From: Flavobacteriales bacterium
GTDB taxonomy: Bacteria > Bacteroidota > Bacteroidia > UBA10329
Assembly (NCBI GenBank): GCA_020635535.1
Contig: JACJZP010000011.1
Coordinates: 6,780-70,779, forward strand
Direction: 5' to 3'
DNA: 64,000 nt
Of this stretch, positions 9,144 to 30,159 are shown in pieces. Position 1 is the stretch's first letter, and the number at the start of each line of letters is the position of its first letter. Under the pieces are notes generated by a model. It did not search any database. It had not been told where the DNA came from and saw only the letters and a list, made by a program, of their open reading frames with translations. The translations under genes were made by a program, and so were the position numbers.

Positions 9144-10579
9144 CAGCTCAGAGGAATACAGACATTCTTTGGTTCGGTGAAGAAACGTAATGCTTCCCAT
9201 CCTCCCTCGCGACCAACGCCCGAATTCTTAACCCCTCCAAAAGGCGTTCTTAGATCGCGGACCAACCAGCAATTGACCCAAACAATTCCTGTGTGAAGGT
9301 GCGCGGCAATGCGATGTGCTTTGGTGAGATCGTTGGTCCAAACCGTAGAGGCAAGACCATACTTGGTGCCGTTGGCATAGGCCAAAACTTCTTCTTCCGT
9401 ATCAAACGGCTGTAACGTAACAACCGGCCCGAATATCTCTTCCTGATTGGTTCTACAGGTTTCAGTAAGCCCTTCGATAACGGTTGGTTCAATGAACCAA
9501 CCGTTCATGCCTGCTTCTACAGGTTTTCCCCCACAGAGAACCGTTCCCCCTTCTTCTTTAGCCAACTCAATGTATGATAGGATCTTCTCAAAATGAGGCT
9601 TGGAGACCACTGCTCCCAGCTTAACATCGGGAGATTGAGGATTGCCCACTTTCATCCTTTTTACCTCCTCCACAAACCGCGTTTTGAATTCATTATAAAT
9701 ACCACGTTGGATGTACATTCTTGAACCGCATAGGCAGATCTGGCCTTGATTGGCGAAACTGGAATTGAGCGAGGTTTTGAGCGCATTCTCCATGTCGCAG
9801 TCATCAAAAATGATGTTAGGATTCTTGCCTCCGAGCTCTAAGGAGAGCTTTTTGAACATTGGAGCCGCAGTGCGCGCAATGGTCTTTCCGGTTTCTGTTC
9901 CTCCAGTGAACGAAATGATCGGAACCTCAGGATGCTCTGTGATGGCCGAACCGACCTTTGCTCCCAAACCATGAACAATATTCAGAACGCCTTTCGGAAA
10001 CCCGACCTCATCACAGATCTGCGACAGTAGATAGGCTGACATTGGCGTTATCTCCGATGGTTTTGCCACCACCGTATTTCCTGAGGCCAGCGCGGGTGCG
10101 ATCTTCCAAGTGAATAGATACAGCGGTAAATTCCATGGTGAAATGCAACCCGCCACACCTATTGGCTGACGCAACGTATAATTCAAGTAAAGGCCGTCCG
10201 TGTCATGCAGTTCTGAGCTATCGTGGAGTATGGCGGTGGCGAAGAATTTGAAATTGTCTGTTGCTCGTGGAATGTCCACTTTCTTGGCCAGCCAAAGTGG
10301 TTTGCCGTTGTCGGTGCTCTCGGCCTCTGCCAATTCATCCAGCCGCTCAGAGATTCTTTTTGCCACGTTGAGCATGTGCTGCGAACGTTCCTCACGCGAT
10401 AGCGAACTCCAGCTGGGAAACGCTGCTTTTGCGGCCTGTACCGCAAGAGCAACATCTGCAGCATCCGAATCTGGGATCAGAGAATAAACCTCACCCGTAG
10501 CGGGGTTGTAATTATCCAGATATGCTCGAGACTCGGGTTCTGTGAATTGTCCGTTGATGTAGTTCAGAATTCGCTGCAT
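9143..10579 (-). CDS. NAD-dependent aldehyde dehydrogenase (2-aminomuconate/2-hydroxymuconate semialdehyde dehydrogenase-like)
   Basis: ALDH motifs: LELGGKNPNIIFDDCD, catalytic Cys in FANQGQICLCGSR, and EEIFGPV. It is a neighbour of the 3-hydroxyanthranilate dioxygenase gene. Confidence 0.85.
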   Translation of the reverse strand: MQRILNYINGQFTEPESRAYLDNYNPATGEVYSLIPDSDAADVALAVQAAKAAFPSWSSLSREERSQHMLNVAKRISERLDELAEAESTDNGKPLWLAKKVDIPRATDNFKFFATAILHDSSELHDTDGLYLNYTLRQPIGVAGCISPWNLPLYLFTWKIAPALASGNTVVAKPSEITPMSAYLLSQICDEVGFPKGVLNIVHGLGAKVGSAITEHPEVPIISFTGGTETGKTIARTAAPMFKKLSLELGGKNPNIIFDDCDMENALKTSLNSSFANQGQICLCGSRMYIQRGIYNEFKTRFVEEVKRMKVGNPQSPDVKLGAVVSKPHFEKILSYIELAKEEGGTVLCGGKPVEAGMNGWFIEPTVIEGLTETCRTNQEEIFGPVVTLQPFDTEEEVLAYANGTKYGLASTVWTNDLTKAHRIAAHLHTGIVWVNCWLVRDLRTPFGGVKNSGVGREGGWEALRFFTEPKNVCIPLS

Positions 10580-26231: not shown

Positions 26232-26948
26232 ATGGATTTTCAGAACGTTGACCATCTACAGATCCTTTTGGTATTAGCGTTTGCACTTGCTGTTTGGTCT
26301 TATTTCAGCATGAAGAAGGAGCGAAAAAAAAGCGCGCGTCTACATGACGAAAACGCGCAGCTTTTAGCTCAAAACGCTATTCTCGAAGCTGAGCAATTGA
26401 AATTCCAGCTGCAACCACACACCCTGAATAATATTCTTGCTAATCTGAAGGCTGTTGCTTCGAAACTACACAGAGGAATGGATGCTCTCTCAGAAACACT
26501 CGAATACATCATTTATAAAGGCAAGGGACATTTGGTAACTGTTGAGGACGAACTTGTTTTTATACAGAGATACCTCATTTTGAACGAGCTGTTCTTAACT
26601 CACATGGACTCCATCAAATTAGACGACACACGGGTGAATGCGAACAGCGAATTTTACCGAAAACCATGTCTGCCTCACCTTGTCACGGGCTATCTCCTTG
26701 AGAACGCATTCAAACATGGTGATACACGTGACCCAAATTTCTTGTCGATTAGTGTGTGTCTAAGCGACCGGGTTTTTGAGCTTCAGGTCTCGAATAAAGT
26801 ACGGTCGGGGCACAGTAATCGCAACGGTGGTATTGGACTACAGAACATGAGAAAGCGATTAGACCTACTTGCCTCTGGCAGCTACGAGCTAAATCACCAA
26901 CAGACCGATTCGGAATACATTTCGACCCTGACAGTGAAATTGAAATGA
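26232..26948 (+). CDS. LytS/YehU-type sensor histidine kinase (His_kinase PF06580-like + HATPase), single TM helix, no extracytoplasmic domain
   Basis: QLQPHTLNNILANL H-box typical of LytS-family kinases, N/G boxes LENAFKHG...NGGIGLQNMRKRLDL, and one N-terminal TM segment. Confidence 0.8.
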   Translation: MDFQNVDHLQILLVLAFALAVWSYFSMKKERKKSARLHDENAQLLAQNAILEAEQLKFQLQPHTLNNILANLKAVASKLHRGMDALSETLEYIIYKGKGHLVTVEDELVFIQRYLILNELFLTHMDSIKLDDTRVNANSEFYRKPCLPHLVTGYLLENAFKHGDTRDPNFLSISVCLSDRVFELQVSNKVRSGHSNRNGGIGLQNMRKRLDLLASGSYELNHQQTDSEYISTLTVKLK

Positions 26949-27703
26949 GCAAATTGAAAGTTGCCGTTCTGGAAGATAGCCCGCTTCTACTTGAAGAGTT
27001 GCGGTATATGCTACGTGATACAAACCTTGTTGATGTAGTAGTTTGTAGTCAGAGTTGCGAGGAATTCATTCAGAAGGTTAAACAGACCAAGGTTGACGCG
27101 CTGATATTGGACATAGACATTGCGGGCGACAACATGAGCGGAATGGATGTAGCCTATCACTTAAAGTTACCTGTACTTTTCGCAAGCGGTAAGACCAAGG
27201 ACAATCTGGAAGGTATTGAAGATTTGACCTTAGAGGAATGGAGCATTGTTGAACACCTTACCAAACCAATAAAGAAGGAAAAACTCGAACGAATGCTTCC
27301 ACAGTTCATTGAACAAGTGCAAGCCAAGGCTCGTAAAAGTGTTGTCAGTCTGAGTCTGAAAGATGGCCGAACATTCGTTGTTCCGATGAATAGTGTTGCA
27401 TACATCTGCTCTTGCACAGGAAGTGACGGTCGGTCCTTGAATAAAGAAATTCATTTTGTAGACAGAAAACCTGGAATATTGGTTGATGTTTCCTTTCCTA
27501 AACTGGAATCTATCGGCTTCACCAGCACCCAGTTTATACGTCCTCATCAATCATACCGCGTGAACGTAGACCACGTGATGGAATACAATCGCCTCTATCA
27601 TAAACTTATTGTCTCTTCATTAAGCTCAGAAGGAAAGACTGTGCAATCCGAAATAGATGTTTCAGAAAACTACCGCTCAGAAATTAAGCAGAAGTTCAGG
27701 TAG
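26945..27703 (+). CDS. LytTR-family response regulator (REC + LytTR DNA-binding domain)
   Basis: VAVLEDS...ILDIDI receiver domain. C-terminal FIRPHQSYRVNVDHV is the LytTR signature (cf. FIRIHRSYIVN). ATGA-coupled to the kinase. Confidence 0.85.
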   Translation: MSKLKVAVLEDSPLLLEELRYMLRDTNLVDVVVCSQSCEEFIQKVKQTKVDALILDIDIAGDNMSGMDVAYHLKLPVLFASGKTKDNLEGIEDLTLEEWSIVEHLTKPIKKEKLERMLPQFIEQVQAKARKSVVSLSLKDGRTFVVPMNSVAYICSCTGSDGRSLNKEIHFVDRKPGILVDVSFPKLESIGFTSTQFIRPHQSYRVNVDHVMEYNRLYHKLIVSSLSSEGKTVQSEIDVSENYRSEIKQKFR

Positions 27704-27757
27704 GCACTTGTCACTCAAAACAAGGCACTTGTCACTCTGATGGGGATGATGTCACCC
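27702..27757 (+). promoter_or_regulatory. three direct repeats (AGGCACTTGTCACTC x2 plus degenerate ATGTCACCC) at 21/20-bp phasing; candidate LytTR operator upstream of the viperin gene
   Basis: Perfect 15-nt repeat at 27702-16 and 27723-37, with a third half-site at 27749-57. The 21-bp periodicity matches LytTR/AgrA-type direct-repeat sites. Confidence 0.4.
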
Positions 27758-27813
27758 GCAATTAGGTAACCTTTACCGACACTGGGACATTCGTTGAAAC
27801 AAAACTCAACGAT

Positions 27814-29205
27814 ATGATTCCATCAGTCAATTTTCACCTCTGGCAGCCCTGCAACATGGCCTGCAAATTCTGCTTCGCTCGCTTTGAGGATGTAAAGCGT
27901 AAGTTCAACCTTCCGAAAGGTCACCTCCCTGAGGAGGACGCCTTGGCCGTGGTCGATGAGCTGGCCGACATCGGCTTCGAGAAAATCACGTTCGCAGGCG
28001 GTGAACCAACGCTCTGCCCGTGGTTGGACAAGCTGATCGTCCGTGCAAAGGAGCGTGGCATGACCACCATGATTGTAACGAACGGGAGCCGTTTGGACGA
28101 ATCTACGCTACTCCAGTTCAAACCCCATCTCGATTGGATAGCCCTCAGCATCGACAGTCTTGATGCAGAGACAAATGCCCAATCTGGCCGAGTACTGAAA
28201 AGTTCGGGCGGCTCTCCCGATTACTTCAAGCTTGTGGATGCTATCAAGGCACATGGCTTTGGGCTGAAGATCAACACGGTCGTCCATAGCCTCAACATGG
28301 ACGAGTCCATGCACGAATTCATTCGACATGCGCGGCCAAAGCGATGGAAGCTGTTCCAAGTGCTTCCCATCGATGGGCAGAACAATGGAGCTGTCGAGCC
28401 GCTGCTCATCTCGTCAGAGCAATTTCTGGGGTTTGTTGACCGCCATGCCGACCTCAACGGAGTGACGGAGGTGATTCCGGAGACCAATGATGACATGCGT
28501 GGTTCCTATGCGATGGTGGATCCCTCCGGACGATTCTATGATAATGTGGATGGCCACCACCACTACAGCCGCCCAATCCTTGAACTCGGGGCCAGACTTG
28601 CTATTCAACAGATGCGCTATGATTTCAAGAAGTTCCTTGGAAGAAAGGGGCAATATGACTGGGTCATTGACCGCAGGGTGCCGGCTCGCATCACTCTGTC
28701 GGGCGAGGTGGCCTCGGGCAAGAGCAGTGTCGGCAGAAAACTGGCAGAGCGGCTAAAGTATCAGTTCTTTTCCATCGGAGACAAAACGAGGGAGTTGGCC
28801 GCAAAGGAGGGAATGAACATCGTTGAGTTCCAGCGGAGATGCCAATTGGATCCCTCGATGGACAGACAGATCGATTCCAAATTTTCAGAGGACTGCAATA
28901 GTCGCAATGGCCTGGTAGTGGATTACCGTCTTGGATTCCGATTCGTCCGCAATGCCTTCCATGTGTTCCTAAAAGTCTCACAGGAAAAGGCCATTGAAAG
29001 GCTGAACGGGGCCAAACGTGCCGGTGAGACGAGTGCTACCGTGAAGGAACGTAACGACTCTTTCAAGTGTCAGTTCATCAATGCCTATGGCGTAGACTAC
29101 ACAGCAGAGAAACACTATAATCTTGTACTCGATGCGGATGACTCCACTGTGGATGAACTCGTGAATCGGATACTTGAACAATTTAACCCAATTCCTAATC
29201 AATAA
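27814..29205 (+). CDS. prokaryotic viperin (radical-SAM, ddhNTP synthase-like) fused to a C-terminal cytidylate-kinase-like P-loop NMP kinase domain
   Basis: N-terminal NFHLWQPCNMACKFCF (CxxxCxxC), GGEPTL, and viperin-specific blocks (LSIDSLDAETN, GLKINTVVHSLNMDESMHEFIRHARPKRWKLFQVLPIDGQN, IPETNDDMRGSYAMVD, FLGRKGQYDW) that track human viperin. The last ~175 aa, RITLSGEVASGKSSVGRKLAERLKYQFFSIGD..., resemble Cmk/cytidylate_kin2. Confidence 0.85.
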   Translation: MIPSVNFHLWQPCNMACKFCFARFEDVKRKFNLPKGHLPEEDALAVVDELADIGFEKITFAGGEPTLCPWLDKLIVRAKERGMTTMIVTNGSRLDESTLLQFKPHLDWIALSIDSLDAETNAQSGRVLKSSGGSPDYFKLVDAIKAHGFGLKINTVVHSLNMDESMHEFIRHARPKRWKLFQVLPIDGQNNGAVEPLLISSEQFLGFVDRHADLNGVTEVIPETNDDMRGSYAMVDPSGRFYDNVDGHHHYSRPILELGARLAIQQMRYDFKKFLGRKGQYDWVIDRRVPARITLSGEVASGKSSVGRKLAERLKYQFFSIGDKTRELAAKEGMNIVEFQRRCQLDPSMDRQIDSKFSEDCNSRNGLVVDYRLGFRFVRNAFHVFLKVSQEKAIERLNGAKRAGETSATVKERNDSFKCQFINAYGVDYTAEKHYNLVLDADDSTVDELVNRILEQFNPIPNQ

Positions 29206-29221
29206 CCGACAAACACTCATC

Positions 29222-29947
29222 ATGAAAACACGAACCTTCTCAAATCGAACCATGAAATACGGAAATCGCCCTACGATTACTCCAGACCCATTGCTTGTTA
29301 GTAAAGCACTTGCCGTTTCGAATCGGCCAACTGGAATTAACAACTTCGTTGTCATTGCACGCTACAAATGGTTGGTAGCAAATGGGGCGATCTACCCCAA
29401 GCGCATGGAAAAGCCCAACCTATTCATAACCATAAATGATGGTATGGTGGAAGATTGTAAGTTCAGCTGTGTGTTTGGAAGAACGCTCCAAAAGCAGAGC
29501 TTCCATATTGAGGTTCTCAATGGTCCGTCAGAGACAAGTAGCGCGACTAAAGAAAATCTTATCCTTAGTAGAGACCTAGGACTGGCCAACCTATGCAACA
29601 TGGCTCTTGATGAATTCCGTGAAAGGGACATCATCCAACCTGTGTTCCCTCTGGATTTCAACACTTACGCTGATGACAGCTGCAACCTAAGTCTGAAGAC
29701 CCGTCCTTCAGACAAGGCTGTTCTGGAAATTCTTCGAGAAGCAGATGTGAACCATTGGGACAAGAACCTCATCATCATCGCCAGACAACGCTGGTTGAAG
29801 GAACAAGGGATTAAGATTCCGACTCAAACTGGAAACCTGAATCTGTTGGTCAAGATTGTCAACGGCCATTTGACCAGCTGCTTCTACAGTCCTGATATGA
29901 TGAACATCATAAGAAAACAGAACTACTTCATTCAAATCCTGAATTGA
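29222..29947 (+). CDS. hypothetical protein with two tandem homologous ~110-aa repeats (unknown function)
   Basis: Starts 16 nt after the viperin-kinase stop. The internal duplication is visible by eye (NNFVVIARYKWLVANG...LFITINDGMVEDCKFS versus KNLIIIARQRWLKEQG...LLVKIVNGHLTSCFYS). Confidence 0.5.
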   Translation: MKTRTFSNRTMKYGNRPTITPDPLLVSKALAVSNRPTGINNFVVIARYKWLVANGAIYPKRMEKPNLFITINDGMVEDCKFSCVFGRTLQKQSFHIEVLNGPSETSSATKENLILSRDLGLANLCNMALDEFRERDIIQPVFPLDFNTYADDSCNLSLKTRPSDKAVLEILREADVNHWDKNLIIIARQRWLKEQGIKIPTQTGNLNLLVKIVNGHLTSCFYSPDMMNIIRKQNYFIQILN

Positions 29948-30027
29948 CTTATTGGGCGAGGAGACCCAAAAACGCGGTAGCCAAAAAGCGTGCAACGAGT
30001 AGGCATAAACCCCAAAATCTTACAGCG

Positions 30028-30159
30028 ATGTCAAAAGGCAAATCTGGAAGTAGCAAAGGATTCCCTGGATGGCCAAGTACAACCGGGAAGCCATCCGGGT
30101 CTGGTAGGGCAAATGGCACTCCGACACCGAAACCCGCTTCTTCTACATCGAAGAAGTGA
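30028..30159 (+). CDS. 43-aa Gly/Ser/Lys/Pro/Thr-rich small ORF (predicted disordered, basic)
   Basis: MSKGKSGSSKGFPGWPSTTGKPSGSGRANGTPTPKPASSTSKK, followed 10 nt later by a strong terminator hairpin. Confidence 0.3.
   Translation: MSKGKSGSSKGFPGWPSTTGKPSGSGRANGTPTPKPASSTSKK

Follow-up and report, generated by a model that had tools for sequence, protein, structure and literature searches.

Prokaryotic viperins (pVips) are usually treated as stand-alone enzymes, sometimes accompanied by a kinase. Their role in defence was reportedly described by Bernheim et al. in 2021. The partnership between viperin and kinase is by now well described (bioRxiv 10.1101/2023.09.13.557418), and HicA genes have been found both upstream and downstream of pVips, with RelE genes also beside them (Gerdes, mBio 2024, classes 9 and 10, PMC10865869). 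Here we examine a 64,000-nt stretch of DNA from a Flavobacteriales bacterium (contig JACJZP010000011.1, positions 6,780 to 70,779; hereafter the window), in which a viperin-kinase gene is followed on the same strand by a gene that we call XX. This gene is a tandem fusion of two copies of X, a previously undescribed alpha/beta domain of ~88 residues. Our survey of related loci, which carry L numbers (proteins carry P numbers) where they must be told apart, shows that these cassettes, in which four or more unrelated effector sets occur, have no protein in common other than X and regulators. Judged from gene content, these loci look like an inducible, modular, defence-like cassette built around a new protein domain, in which the viperin-kinase would be a swappable, inducible cargo effector.

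The X family is small. An exhaustive phmmer search over 1.8 billion cluster representatives identified 16 proteins at E ≤ 0.001, one of which (P0015) is probably spurious; a profile search of a word-indexed collection yielded 19, and scans of GTDB genomes and JGI metagenomes provided 29 further X loci. Together we count 62 unique domains over ~41 distinct loci, most of them on contigs from metagenome-assembled genomes (MAGs) or metagenomes. All 14 genome matches with a named taxon are Bacteroidota MAGs, a 15th being labelled just 'bacterium', and X is confined to Bacteroidota in the collections searched. The phage, plasmid and IMG/VR collections contain no match, and we therefore rejected the idea that X is a gene of phages or other mobile elements.

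Wherever enough flanking sequence is available, a dedicated activator lies beside X, and at least four unrelated effector sets accompany it. In type I loci (nine), the gene order is a PF06580 kinase with one transmembrane helix and no sensor, a response regulator with receiver (REC) and LytTR domains, one or more effectors, X, and a small open reading frame (ORF) that we call Y. The effector is pVip-kinase in the window, L001 and L002; an NYN protein, an MkoA-like superfamily 1 (SF1) helicase (PADLOC E 1e-78) and a 307-aa unknown protein in L007, L030 and L039; and a TauD-type dioxygenase with a GRDP-like protein in L012, L032, L035 and the locus of P0034. Identity of the window kinase to its counterparts is 79% in L001, 51% in L035 and 26% in L007 (E ~1e-33), all from cassettes that end in X, and regulators homologous to that of the window precede X cassettes in L001, L007, L032 and L035 (38% identity in the last). 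L035 also conserves the LytTR-box promoter layout of the window, yet its effectors are the TauD and GRDP-like proteins and it has no viperin. In type II loci (29, from a census skewed to this type by search patterns built from type II sequences), a divergent sigma-54-type AAA+ activator is paired with an operon in which X is the first gene and which encodes a family 4 glycosyltransferase (GT4) that either is fused to a radical SAM-SPASM enzyme or lies next to one. L048 (201-2222) has a third arrangement, with X (120 aa), Y, a pVip of 302 aa without a kinase and a 108-aa protein; its pVip domain is 53% identical to that of the window, and it represents a second, independent link between X and viperin. 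L050 and L051 are too short for an architecture to be assigned.

The breadth of these associations bears directly on the function of X. The initial annotation of this gene, made from the sequence of the window, had proposed an accessory role, such as pyrophosphatase or immunity, nucleotide binding, or regulation. In viperin chemistry, X would then be a pyrophosphatase, an immunity factor against the 3'-deoxy-3',4'-didehydro-nucleoside triphosphate (ddhNTP) product, or a nucleotide-binding helper. X is in tight operon linkage with pVip-kinase, it occurs with viperin in two gene orders (that of the window, L001 and L002, and separately that of L048), and the GT4-linked partner in type II is likewise a radical SAM enzyme. 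Yet ~34 of the ~41 distinct X loci lack viperin, and X is also found with NYN plus MkoA-like helicase and with TauD plus GRDP-like protein. Neither a phosphohydrolase nor a nucleotide-binding motif is present in X, no family matches it, and the frame moves together with X and the regulators rather than with viperin. Because the effector sets beside X number at least four and are unrelated, X belongs with the conserved frame and not with viperin chemistry; a role tied to that chemistry is disfavoured by the distribution, and we consider a nucleotide-handling accessory of viperin highly improbable. Regulation, which the annotation had also listed, and generic binding survive as options; pyrophosphatase, immunity and nucleotide handling do not.

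XX is a real gene. As annotated, its start codon lies 16 nt past the stop of the viperin-kinase ORF; a scan of the interval found no terminator-like site. Co-transcription of the two genes, also part of the initial annotation, is likely because they lie close together and stay paired in the window, L001 and L002, three closely related loci. Tandem duplication within the protein is confirmed: residues 41-100 and 182-241 align without gaps at 32% identity (BLASTP E 7e-11), and the Smith-Waterman score of one half against the other is 96, compared with 26 ± 4 for shuffled sequences (n = 500; z ~16; 0/500 reach 96). The X family profile covers 88-89 of its 90 positions in each half, and the single-domain X of L007 matches each half at ~1e-16 to 1e-17; the halves thus resemble each other and their single-copy homologues. 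The annotated homology of the halves holds, with a repeat unit of ~88-90 aa in place of the ~110 aa first given. Domain 1 retains the family-invariant R, W, P, N, G and K and the terminal N, and domain 2 includes an N-terminal F-x-x-DDSC tail motif. Between the window and L001, the ratio of non-synonymous to synonymous substitution rates (dN/dS) is 0.18 for the whole gene; both halves are under purifying selection, with weaker constraint in the linker (Table 1). The protein has no transmembrane segment (maximum Kyte-Doolittle 19-residue mean 0.88) and, by eye and with no signal-peptide predictor run, no N-terminal hydrophobic stretch that would suggest secretion, in line with the first description.

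Table 1. Coordinates of the cassette features in the window and of the matching DUF805b and Y elements in related loci.
Feature	Locus	Position	Strand	Evidence and remarks
Histidine kinase, 238 aa, one N-terminal transmembrane helix, no sensor domain	window	26232-26948	+	Pfam His_kinase PF06580 E 1.5e-9
REC-LytTR response regulator, 252 aa	window	26945-27703	+	Pfam Response_reg E 5.5e-10, LytTR E 3.4e-6
Candidate LytTR operator	window	27704-27757	+	exact 13-bp direct repeats GCACTTGTCACTC at 27704-27716 and 27725-27737
Hairpin TCGTTGA-N8-TCAACGA	window	27791-27812	+	RNA fold -17.1 kcal/mol, z = -3.7
Viperin (radical SAM) fused to CMP-kinase-like domain, 463 aa	window	27814-29205	+	PADLOC pVip-kinase E 6.8e-169
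XX gene (two X domains), 241 aa	window	29222-29947	+	ATG start
X domain 1 (aa 11-100)	window	29252-29521	+	profile domain E 1.2e-30; dN/dS 0.13
Acidic linker (aa 101-147, ~47 aa, pI 4.3)	window	29522-29662	+	dN/dS 0.33
X domain 2 (aa 148-241)	window	29663-29944	+	profile domain E 1.4e-36; dN/dS 0.13
DUF805b motif (Rfam RF02914, cis-regulatory)	window	29971-30005	+	full length, 34.6 bits vs gathering 35.6, E 3.3e-7
Small ORF Y, 43 aa, MSKGKSGSSKGFPGWPSTTGKPSGSGRANGTPTPKPASSTSKK	window	30028-30159	+	basic; rich in Gly, Pro, Ser, Asn
DUF805b motif	L035	8045-8077		44.7 bits, above gathering 35.6
DUF805b motif	L051	683-715		38.5 bits, above gathering 35.6
DUF805b motif	L002	2207-2241		37.2 bits, above gathering 35.6
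Small ORF Y	L002	2264		
Small ORF Y	L007	8396		
Small ORF Y	L028	10386		
Small ORF Y	L048	653		

Searches of Pfam, NCBIfam, PADLOC and PHROGs returned no meaningful match for the XX protein or its homologues, in keeping with the annotators' failure to place it in a family. Pfam had no match for XX and eight homologues at E ≤ 1, and none for a set of 21 sequences (the two window halves and 19 single-domain homologues) at E ≤ 10. No PADLOC model matches X, which is thus no listed component of prokaryotic viperin defence in that collection. Three apparent similarities were discarded as noise or chance, namely a HAD-like NCBIfam match (16 bits against a cutoff of 152), a PHROG match (E 0.33), and sequence matches of the family profile to the Protein Data Bank (PDB), such as PRMT8 at E 0.016 across 28 residues.

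Structure comparison by Foldseek likewise found no fold match in the PDB or BFVD. For the C-terminal X domain, AlphaFold with 20 homologues gave a predicted local distance difference test score (pLDDT) of 82 and a predicted TM-score (pTM) of 0.72, with elements in the order helix-strand-helix-strand-strand-(short helix)-strand. The full XX model has a pLDDT of 68, and its linker helices (110-126 and 129-134) are of low confidence (pLDDT < 50 for 102-132). Foldseek searches of both models against the PDB, and of the single-domain model against BFVD, found no match with E < 0.01 and a sensible TM-score. The best PDB match has E 0.37, with TM-scores ≤ 0.45, and the best BFVD match has E 0.011 at a root-mean-square deviation of 16 Å; neither is a credible relative. 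ASKHA folds (FtsA, MreB, PPX) were rejected on TM-scores ≤ 0.38. Foldseek comparison of a one-repeat model had been proposed with the initial annotation, which would have been undermined had X proved to be a common housekeeping domain or had the gene been missing from other pVip loci; X is no known domain of that kind, and the gene is present at other pVip loci.

Nearly all members of the family are single-domain proteins of 100-140 aa with an isoelectric point (pI) of 9.6-10.6, unlike XX proteins, whose pI is 5.8-9.3. The domain always lies at the protein C-terminus and typically ends in KKQNYxIQILN. Across the 62 unique domains, R37 is invariant and I35, P11, W40, P49, N56, L57, K81 and the C-terminal N90 are at least 95% conserved; R37, W40, N56, K81, Q82, Y84 and N90 make up the near-invariant set. 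The sole His column is <80% conserved, and the halves of the window protein have Asn or Arg there. Tandem XX is found in viperin cassettes (the window, L001, L002, P0002 and P0004) and, frameshifted, in the type II locus L052. X genes are split by frameshifts in L035 (7701-8032), L036 (5665-6011) and L052 (7789-8480), which are either MAG assembly errors or genuine pseudogenes. In L028, a 100-aa ORF between the activator and X (9591-9893, + strand) matches the X profile weakly (E 0.02, 77/90 positions) and may be a second, highly divergent X copy carried as a separate gene. The 108-aa ORF after pVip in L048 was considered in the same light and rejected (X-profile E just 3.1); its HxxxRxxxR-like N-terminus and its size recall small toxins, and it has no Pfam or PADLOC match.

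A small, basic protein beside a pVip could also be a toxin-like effector, either a metal-independent RNase or a translation blocker, that is co-induced to arrest the infected cell. HicA and RelE occupy comparable positions around pVips (PMC10865869), X being downstream of viperin in the window and upstream in L048; its conserved residues (R, K, K, Q, Y, N and mostly H) would suit such an activity, it sits within an induced operon, and frameshifted copies are present in 3 of ~41 loci. Against this, 0/21 X members match the Pfam profiles HicA_toxin (PF07927), RelE or ParE at E ≤ 10, and the 50 Foldseek matches listed include neither a HicA nor a RelE structure. The sole His is not conserved and is gone from both window halves, on which purifying selection nevertheless acts. 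The fusions of X to nuclease or toxin domains would suit a sensor or targeting domain better than a second toxin, and a tandem duplication has no obvious use in a small RNase. We regard a toxin as an unlikely identity for X, though as the foremost alternative to the reading that we favour. The narrower idea that X is a HicA, which was prompted by Gerdes (2024) and by eyeball alignment to E. coli HicA, was abandoned: the profiles and the fold search lend it no support, and the conserved catalytic His expected of HicA is missing from X.

Nucleases recur in the vicinity of X, and in some type II loci they are adjacent or fused to it. An NYN protein lies beside X in the type II locus L041, and a DNA_pol_A_exo1-type 3'-5' exonuclease domain does so in L014 and L026, also of type II. 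P0020 carries a putative PD-(D/E)xK-like N-terminal domain fused to X (motif recognised by eye; no family match). A DUF4258-like C-terminal extension is fused to X in P0019 and L049 (weak Pfam match, E 5e-4, 20.7 bits against a cutoff of 25); within the X domain itself, the RelE, ParE and DUF4258 profiles have no match.

We favour a reading in which X serves the cassette control layer as a basic, dimeric subunit with a binding or regulatory role and no catalysis of its own, and we place its probability at roughly 0.4. Single-domain X proteins are very basic, and both window halves keep the conserved polar residues (R, N, K, Q, Y and the terminal N) but not the sole His, which argues for binding over catalysis. 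X would normally form a homodimer, and the XX fusion of the window would be an intramolecular pseudo-dimer; this interpretation is suggested by the fact that tandem XX arose or was kept in two architectures, viperin cassettes and the type II locus L052. Fusion or adjacency of X to putative nuclease domains favours a sensor or targeting function, domains of that kind being often so placed in defence proteins, and its frequent translational coupling to a neighbour favours a place in the control layer. The ligand may be nucleic-acid-like (RNA or DNA) or a phage-derived cue, or perhaps a protein of the cassette. In type I, the sensor-less kinase and LytTR regulator would drive an operon of effector(s), X, DUF805b and Y, as the repeat boxes described below suggest; in type II, a divergent RtcR/PspF-like activator would drive X, sometimes Y, sometimes a nuclease, and then the GT4-radical-SAM-SPASM operon. 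Within either circuit, X could feed back on induction, or, after the operon has been turned on, it could license and target the effector next to it; it would not act on ddhNTP chemistry.

Several considerations weigh against this model. Binding, dimerisation and a regulatory effect of X are proposals drawn from genomic context. A single regulator that serves both kinase/LytTR systems and AAA+ enhancer-binding proteins is awkward unless these share a signal or a target, and the long type II activators already have a CARF-like sensor region, so that X is not needed as a sensor there. The position of X inside an induced operon suits a co-induced effector equally well. Finally, a high pI is common in small proteins of AT-rich Bacteroidota, and the pI range of the XX proteins is lower.

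The remaining genes of the window cassette are consistent with an effector exchanged within a regulatory frame. The neighbour of XX is a bona fide viperin-kinase fusion: it matches NCBIfam viperin_w_prok at E 4.5e-91 (304.9 bits against a cutoff of 180), Pfam Radical_SAM and Cytidylate_kin2, and PADLOC VakA at 3.4e-28, and it contains CNMACKFC, which fits the CxxxCxxC core of radical SAM enzymes. Both Pfam matches of the regulator are above cutoff. Between the window and L001, protein identity is 93% for pVip-kinase, 75% for XX, 79% for the kinase and 68% for the regulator, and synonymous divergence (dS; window 26232-29947, L001 4992-8738) rises from 0.28 in pVip-kinase to 0.76 in XX and reaches saturation in the kinase and regulator. 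From this gradient in dS we conclude that the cassette is mosaic, with the viperin gene as its most recently shared part. The pattern is as effector swapping would produce and suggests that the effector gene was exchanged recently, inside a regulatory frame of greater age. The viperin gene has a G+C content of ~0.53, higher than the ~0.42-0.46 of the kinase, regulator and X genes. Genes for an alpha-2-macroglobulin and a thiolase flank the cassette in the window. A HicA-HicB pair lies directly upstream of the kinase-regulator-pVip-kinase-XX genes in L001 (4304-4890, - strand) and is not present in the window; it echoes the reported association of HicA with viperin.

AgrA/LytTR-type regulators act on direct repeats, and the interval between the regulator and viperin-kinase genes contains a candidate operator of this form. 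The exact GCACTTGTCACTC copies start 21 bp apart, are unique to this site within the window, and are followed by a degenerate third copy (27745-27757). The same three-repeat layout directly follows the regulator gene in L001, L032 and L035, despite other effectors in some of these. By analogy, we infer that the repeats are LytTR binding boxes; a REC-LytTR regulator, a partner kinase and direct repeats about two helical turns apart are what would be expected of a LytTR two-component system. Downstream of the repeats, a predicted hairpin ends 2 nt ahead of the viperin-kinase ATG. Its stem is kept in L001 by a compensatory, two-sided change (CGTTGA/TCAACG to CGTTGG/CCAACG), a 10-bp stem occupies the matching position in L035, and the positions of repeats and hairpin are shared by L001, L032 and L035.

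Downstream of X lies a second recurrent element, comprising the DUF805b motif and the small ORF Y. The DUF805b match is the sole Rfam match in the window. It falls between X and Y, as it does in 10 related loci, three of them above the gathering score (Table 1) and the other seven at 28.8-34.7 bits, and it precedes both sequence types of Y, Y1 (...NAPSTTGKPSGGGRGNNPPKPKK) and Y2 (...NHQADIKNxNKG...NQGNRGKQLNPNQKGK). DUF805b may thus be a leader or promoter element of the Y peptide gene, not of DUF805 genes. Y itself (29-46 aa) has the family core PS(K/T)TG(N/K)PSGGGRGNNPP and is protein-coding, because synonymous codon changes in this core predominate over non-synonymous ones across 13 loci (552 vs 217) and differences concentrate at the third codon position (158/172/705, or 705 of 1035). 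It follows X in 25 loci of both architectures and occurs nowhere else in the ~600 kb of fetched loci. Y1-like peptides form 1192 clusters, which extend to Betaproteobacteria (Lautropia, Acidovorax) and to a MAG of a euryarchaeon; in some members the unit is present twice in tandem. Y is therefore an independent, widely conserved small protein that travels with X in Bacteroidota. Pfam and NCBIfam contain no match for Y, and no paper with its core sequence was found in the literature searched; there the name DUF805b is confined to a single paper, an RNA-alignment benchmark, and is absent from the main text of the original description (Weinberg 2017).

The company of Y and modifying enzymes raises the possibility that X is a PqqD-like, peptide-binding chaperone that presents Y to the radical SAM-SPASM, GT4 and TauD-type enzymes. 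Y stands directly after X, in type II between X and the GT4-radical-SAM-SPASM enzyme; X is often translationally coupled to the radical SAM enzyme; and the set of a peptide, a ~90-aa protein, a radical SAM-SPASM enzyme, a glycosyltransferase and a methyltransferase recalls, by analogy, mycofactocin and PQQ logic. This proposal fits poorly with the ~20 type II loci that have X and no Y nearby, on which ground we also rejected Y as an obligatory radical SAM substrate. Y is, moreover, far wider in distribution than X, and neither viperin nor the NYN/helicase effectors modify peptides. None of the 21 X members matches the Pfam PqqD/RRE profiles at E ≤ 10, and PqqD or RRE structures (a winged helix with a three-stranded sheet) are absent among the Foldseek PDB matches listed. 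We consider a chaperone role improbable.

The type II operon looks like an inducible pathway for a small molecule, perhaps of glycoside type. Besides GT4 and radical SAM-SPASM, it encodes a WG-repeat protein and a phosphatase (His_Phos_1, or a Pol-beta NTase with Y_phosphatase3), and in many cases a methyltransferase, a carbamoyltransferase or both; beyond generic radical SAM similarity, PADLOC system models have no match for these enzymes. In many loci X runs into the following gene or directly adjoins it, and TGGCAC-N5-TTGA-like promoters precede it in L009 and L014. The operon is recurrent in Bacteroidota (L003 6865-11890, L009, L016, L019, L023-L047 and L052), in surroundings that resemble defence islands, with reverse transcriptase, TerD, integrase, TOTE and McrBC genes nearby.

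To our knowledge, the defence systems of Bacteroidota are little studied, and the loci described here may be of use in this respect. The viperin-kinase of the window appears to be inducible cargo of a conserved frame of which X is the sole non-regulator constant. If X gates or targets the response, this would explain how a potentially self-toxic factory of chain terminators stays off until needed, and X, the LytTR boxes and DUF805b-Y would become handles for finding further effectors in Bacteroidota. The search has also exposed two things that are apparently undescribed: a widespread GT4-radical-SAM-SPASM operon under RtcR/PspF-like control and the widely conserved Y peptide family. We term the cassettes defence-like on the strength of gene content, their functions being read from context. 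One could envision, as a speculation that we would not bet on, that X and DUF805b-Y are the signature of a new class of Bacteroidota immune cassette, in which the switch and X are constant, the effectors are cargo, and X is a new fold that gates the response on a signal of infection or damage. Under this scenario, and with equally modest expectation, the cargo would include viperin-kinase, a Mokosh-like helicase with NYN, a TauD-type dioxygenase, and the GT4-radical-SAM-SPASM pathway under an RtcR-like sensor of RNA damage.

Much of what surrounds X is already known: the viperin-kinase is described, and the LytTR and RtcR/PspF-like regulators belong to known families; X is in no family tested. 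In the literature searched, including PMC10865869, bioRxiv 10.1101/2023.09.13.557418 and the conflict-systems paper of Aravind (2020), we found no description of a kinase/LytTR-controlled viperin operon ending in XX-DUF805b-Y, nor, in the searched literature including the viperin papers and Aravind (2020), of X as the shared core of effector-swapping cassettes. The HicA and RelE proteins beside pVips are among the nearest comparisons. Like X, they are small (~60-100 aa) and basic, adjoin pVip on the same strand, have no obvious antitoxin and are proposed to cooperate with viperin. X differs in that it has no sequence or detectable fold similarity to them and no conserved catalytic His, is present in tandem in the window, and is found also with non-viperin effectors under dedicated activators.

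The regulators of type II invite comparison with sigma-54 activators. PspF and HrpS lack a sensor and are controlled in trans by a small protein of the operon they activate, PspA and HrpV, respectively. The short type II activators (299-362 aa) resemble this arrangement: they match the AAA-HTH part of the PADLOC model RtcR_PspF1--CARF_AAA_HTH (1.4e-20) and are divergent from an operon whose first gene encodes the small protein X. Unlike PspA and HrpV, to which it is unrelated in sequence, X is found beside kinase/LytTR regulators and beside long activators that bear a CARF region as well. RtcR is a CARF-AAA+-HTH activator of an RNA-repair operon, and it is the best match of these long activators (~600 aa; NCBIfam NF038308 E 5e-43 over part of the CARF region; RtcR_PspF1 6e-73), with a canonical GAFTGA loop in that of L028. 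Their score of 148 bits is, however, far below the RtcR equivalog cutoff of 650, their operon encodes X and GT4-radical-SAM-SPASM and not rtcBA, and the window uses kinase/LytTR instead.

The RRE/PqqD proteins of pathways for peptides made by the ribosome and modified after translation (RiPPs) are a further parallel, as part of the type II loci contain a ~90-aa protein whose neighbours are a small peptide gene and a radical SAM-SPASM enzyme. X has no sequence or fold match to these proteins, half of the type II loci lack the peptide, and the enzyme in the window is a nucleotide-modifying viperin. With respect to pVip-kinase defence itself, the neighbour of XX is a genuine viperin-kinase fusion, a partnership described before (bioRxiv 10.1101/2023.09.13.557418). 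In the viperin papers searched (PMC10865869; bioRxiv 10.1101/2023.09.13.557418), neither the kinase/LytTR switch nor the partners X and Y that accompany it are mentioned, and it looks like one of several cargo effectors that a shared regulatory frame can carry.

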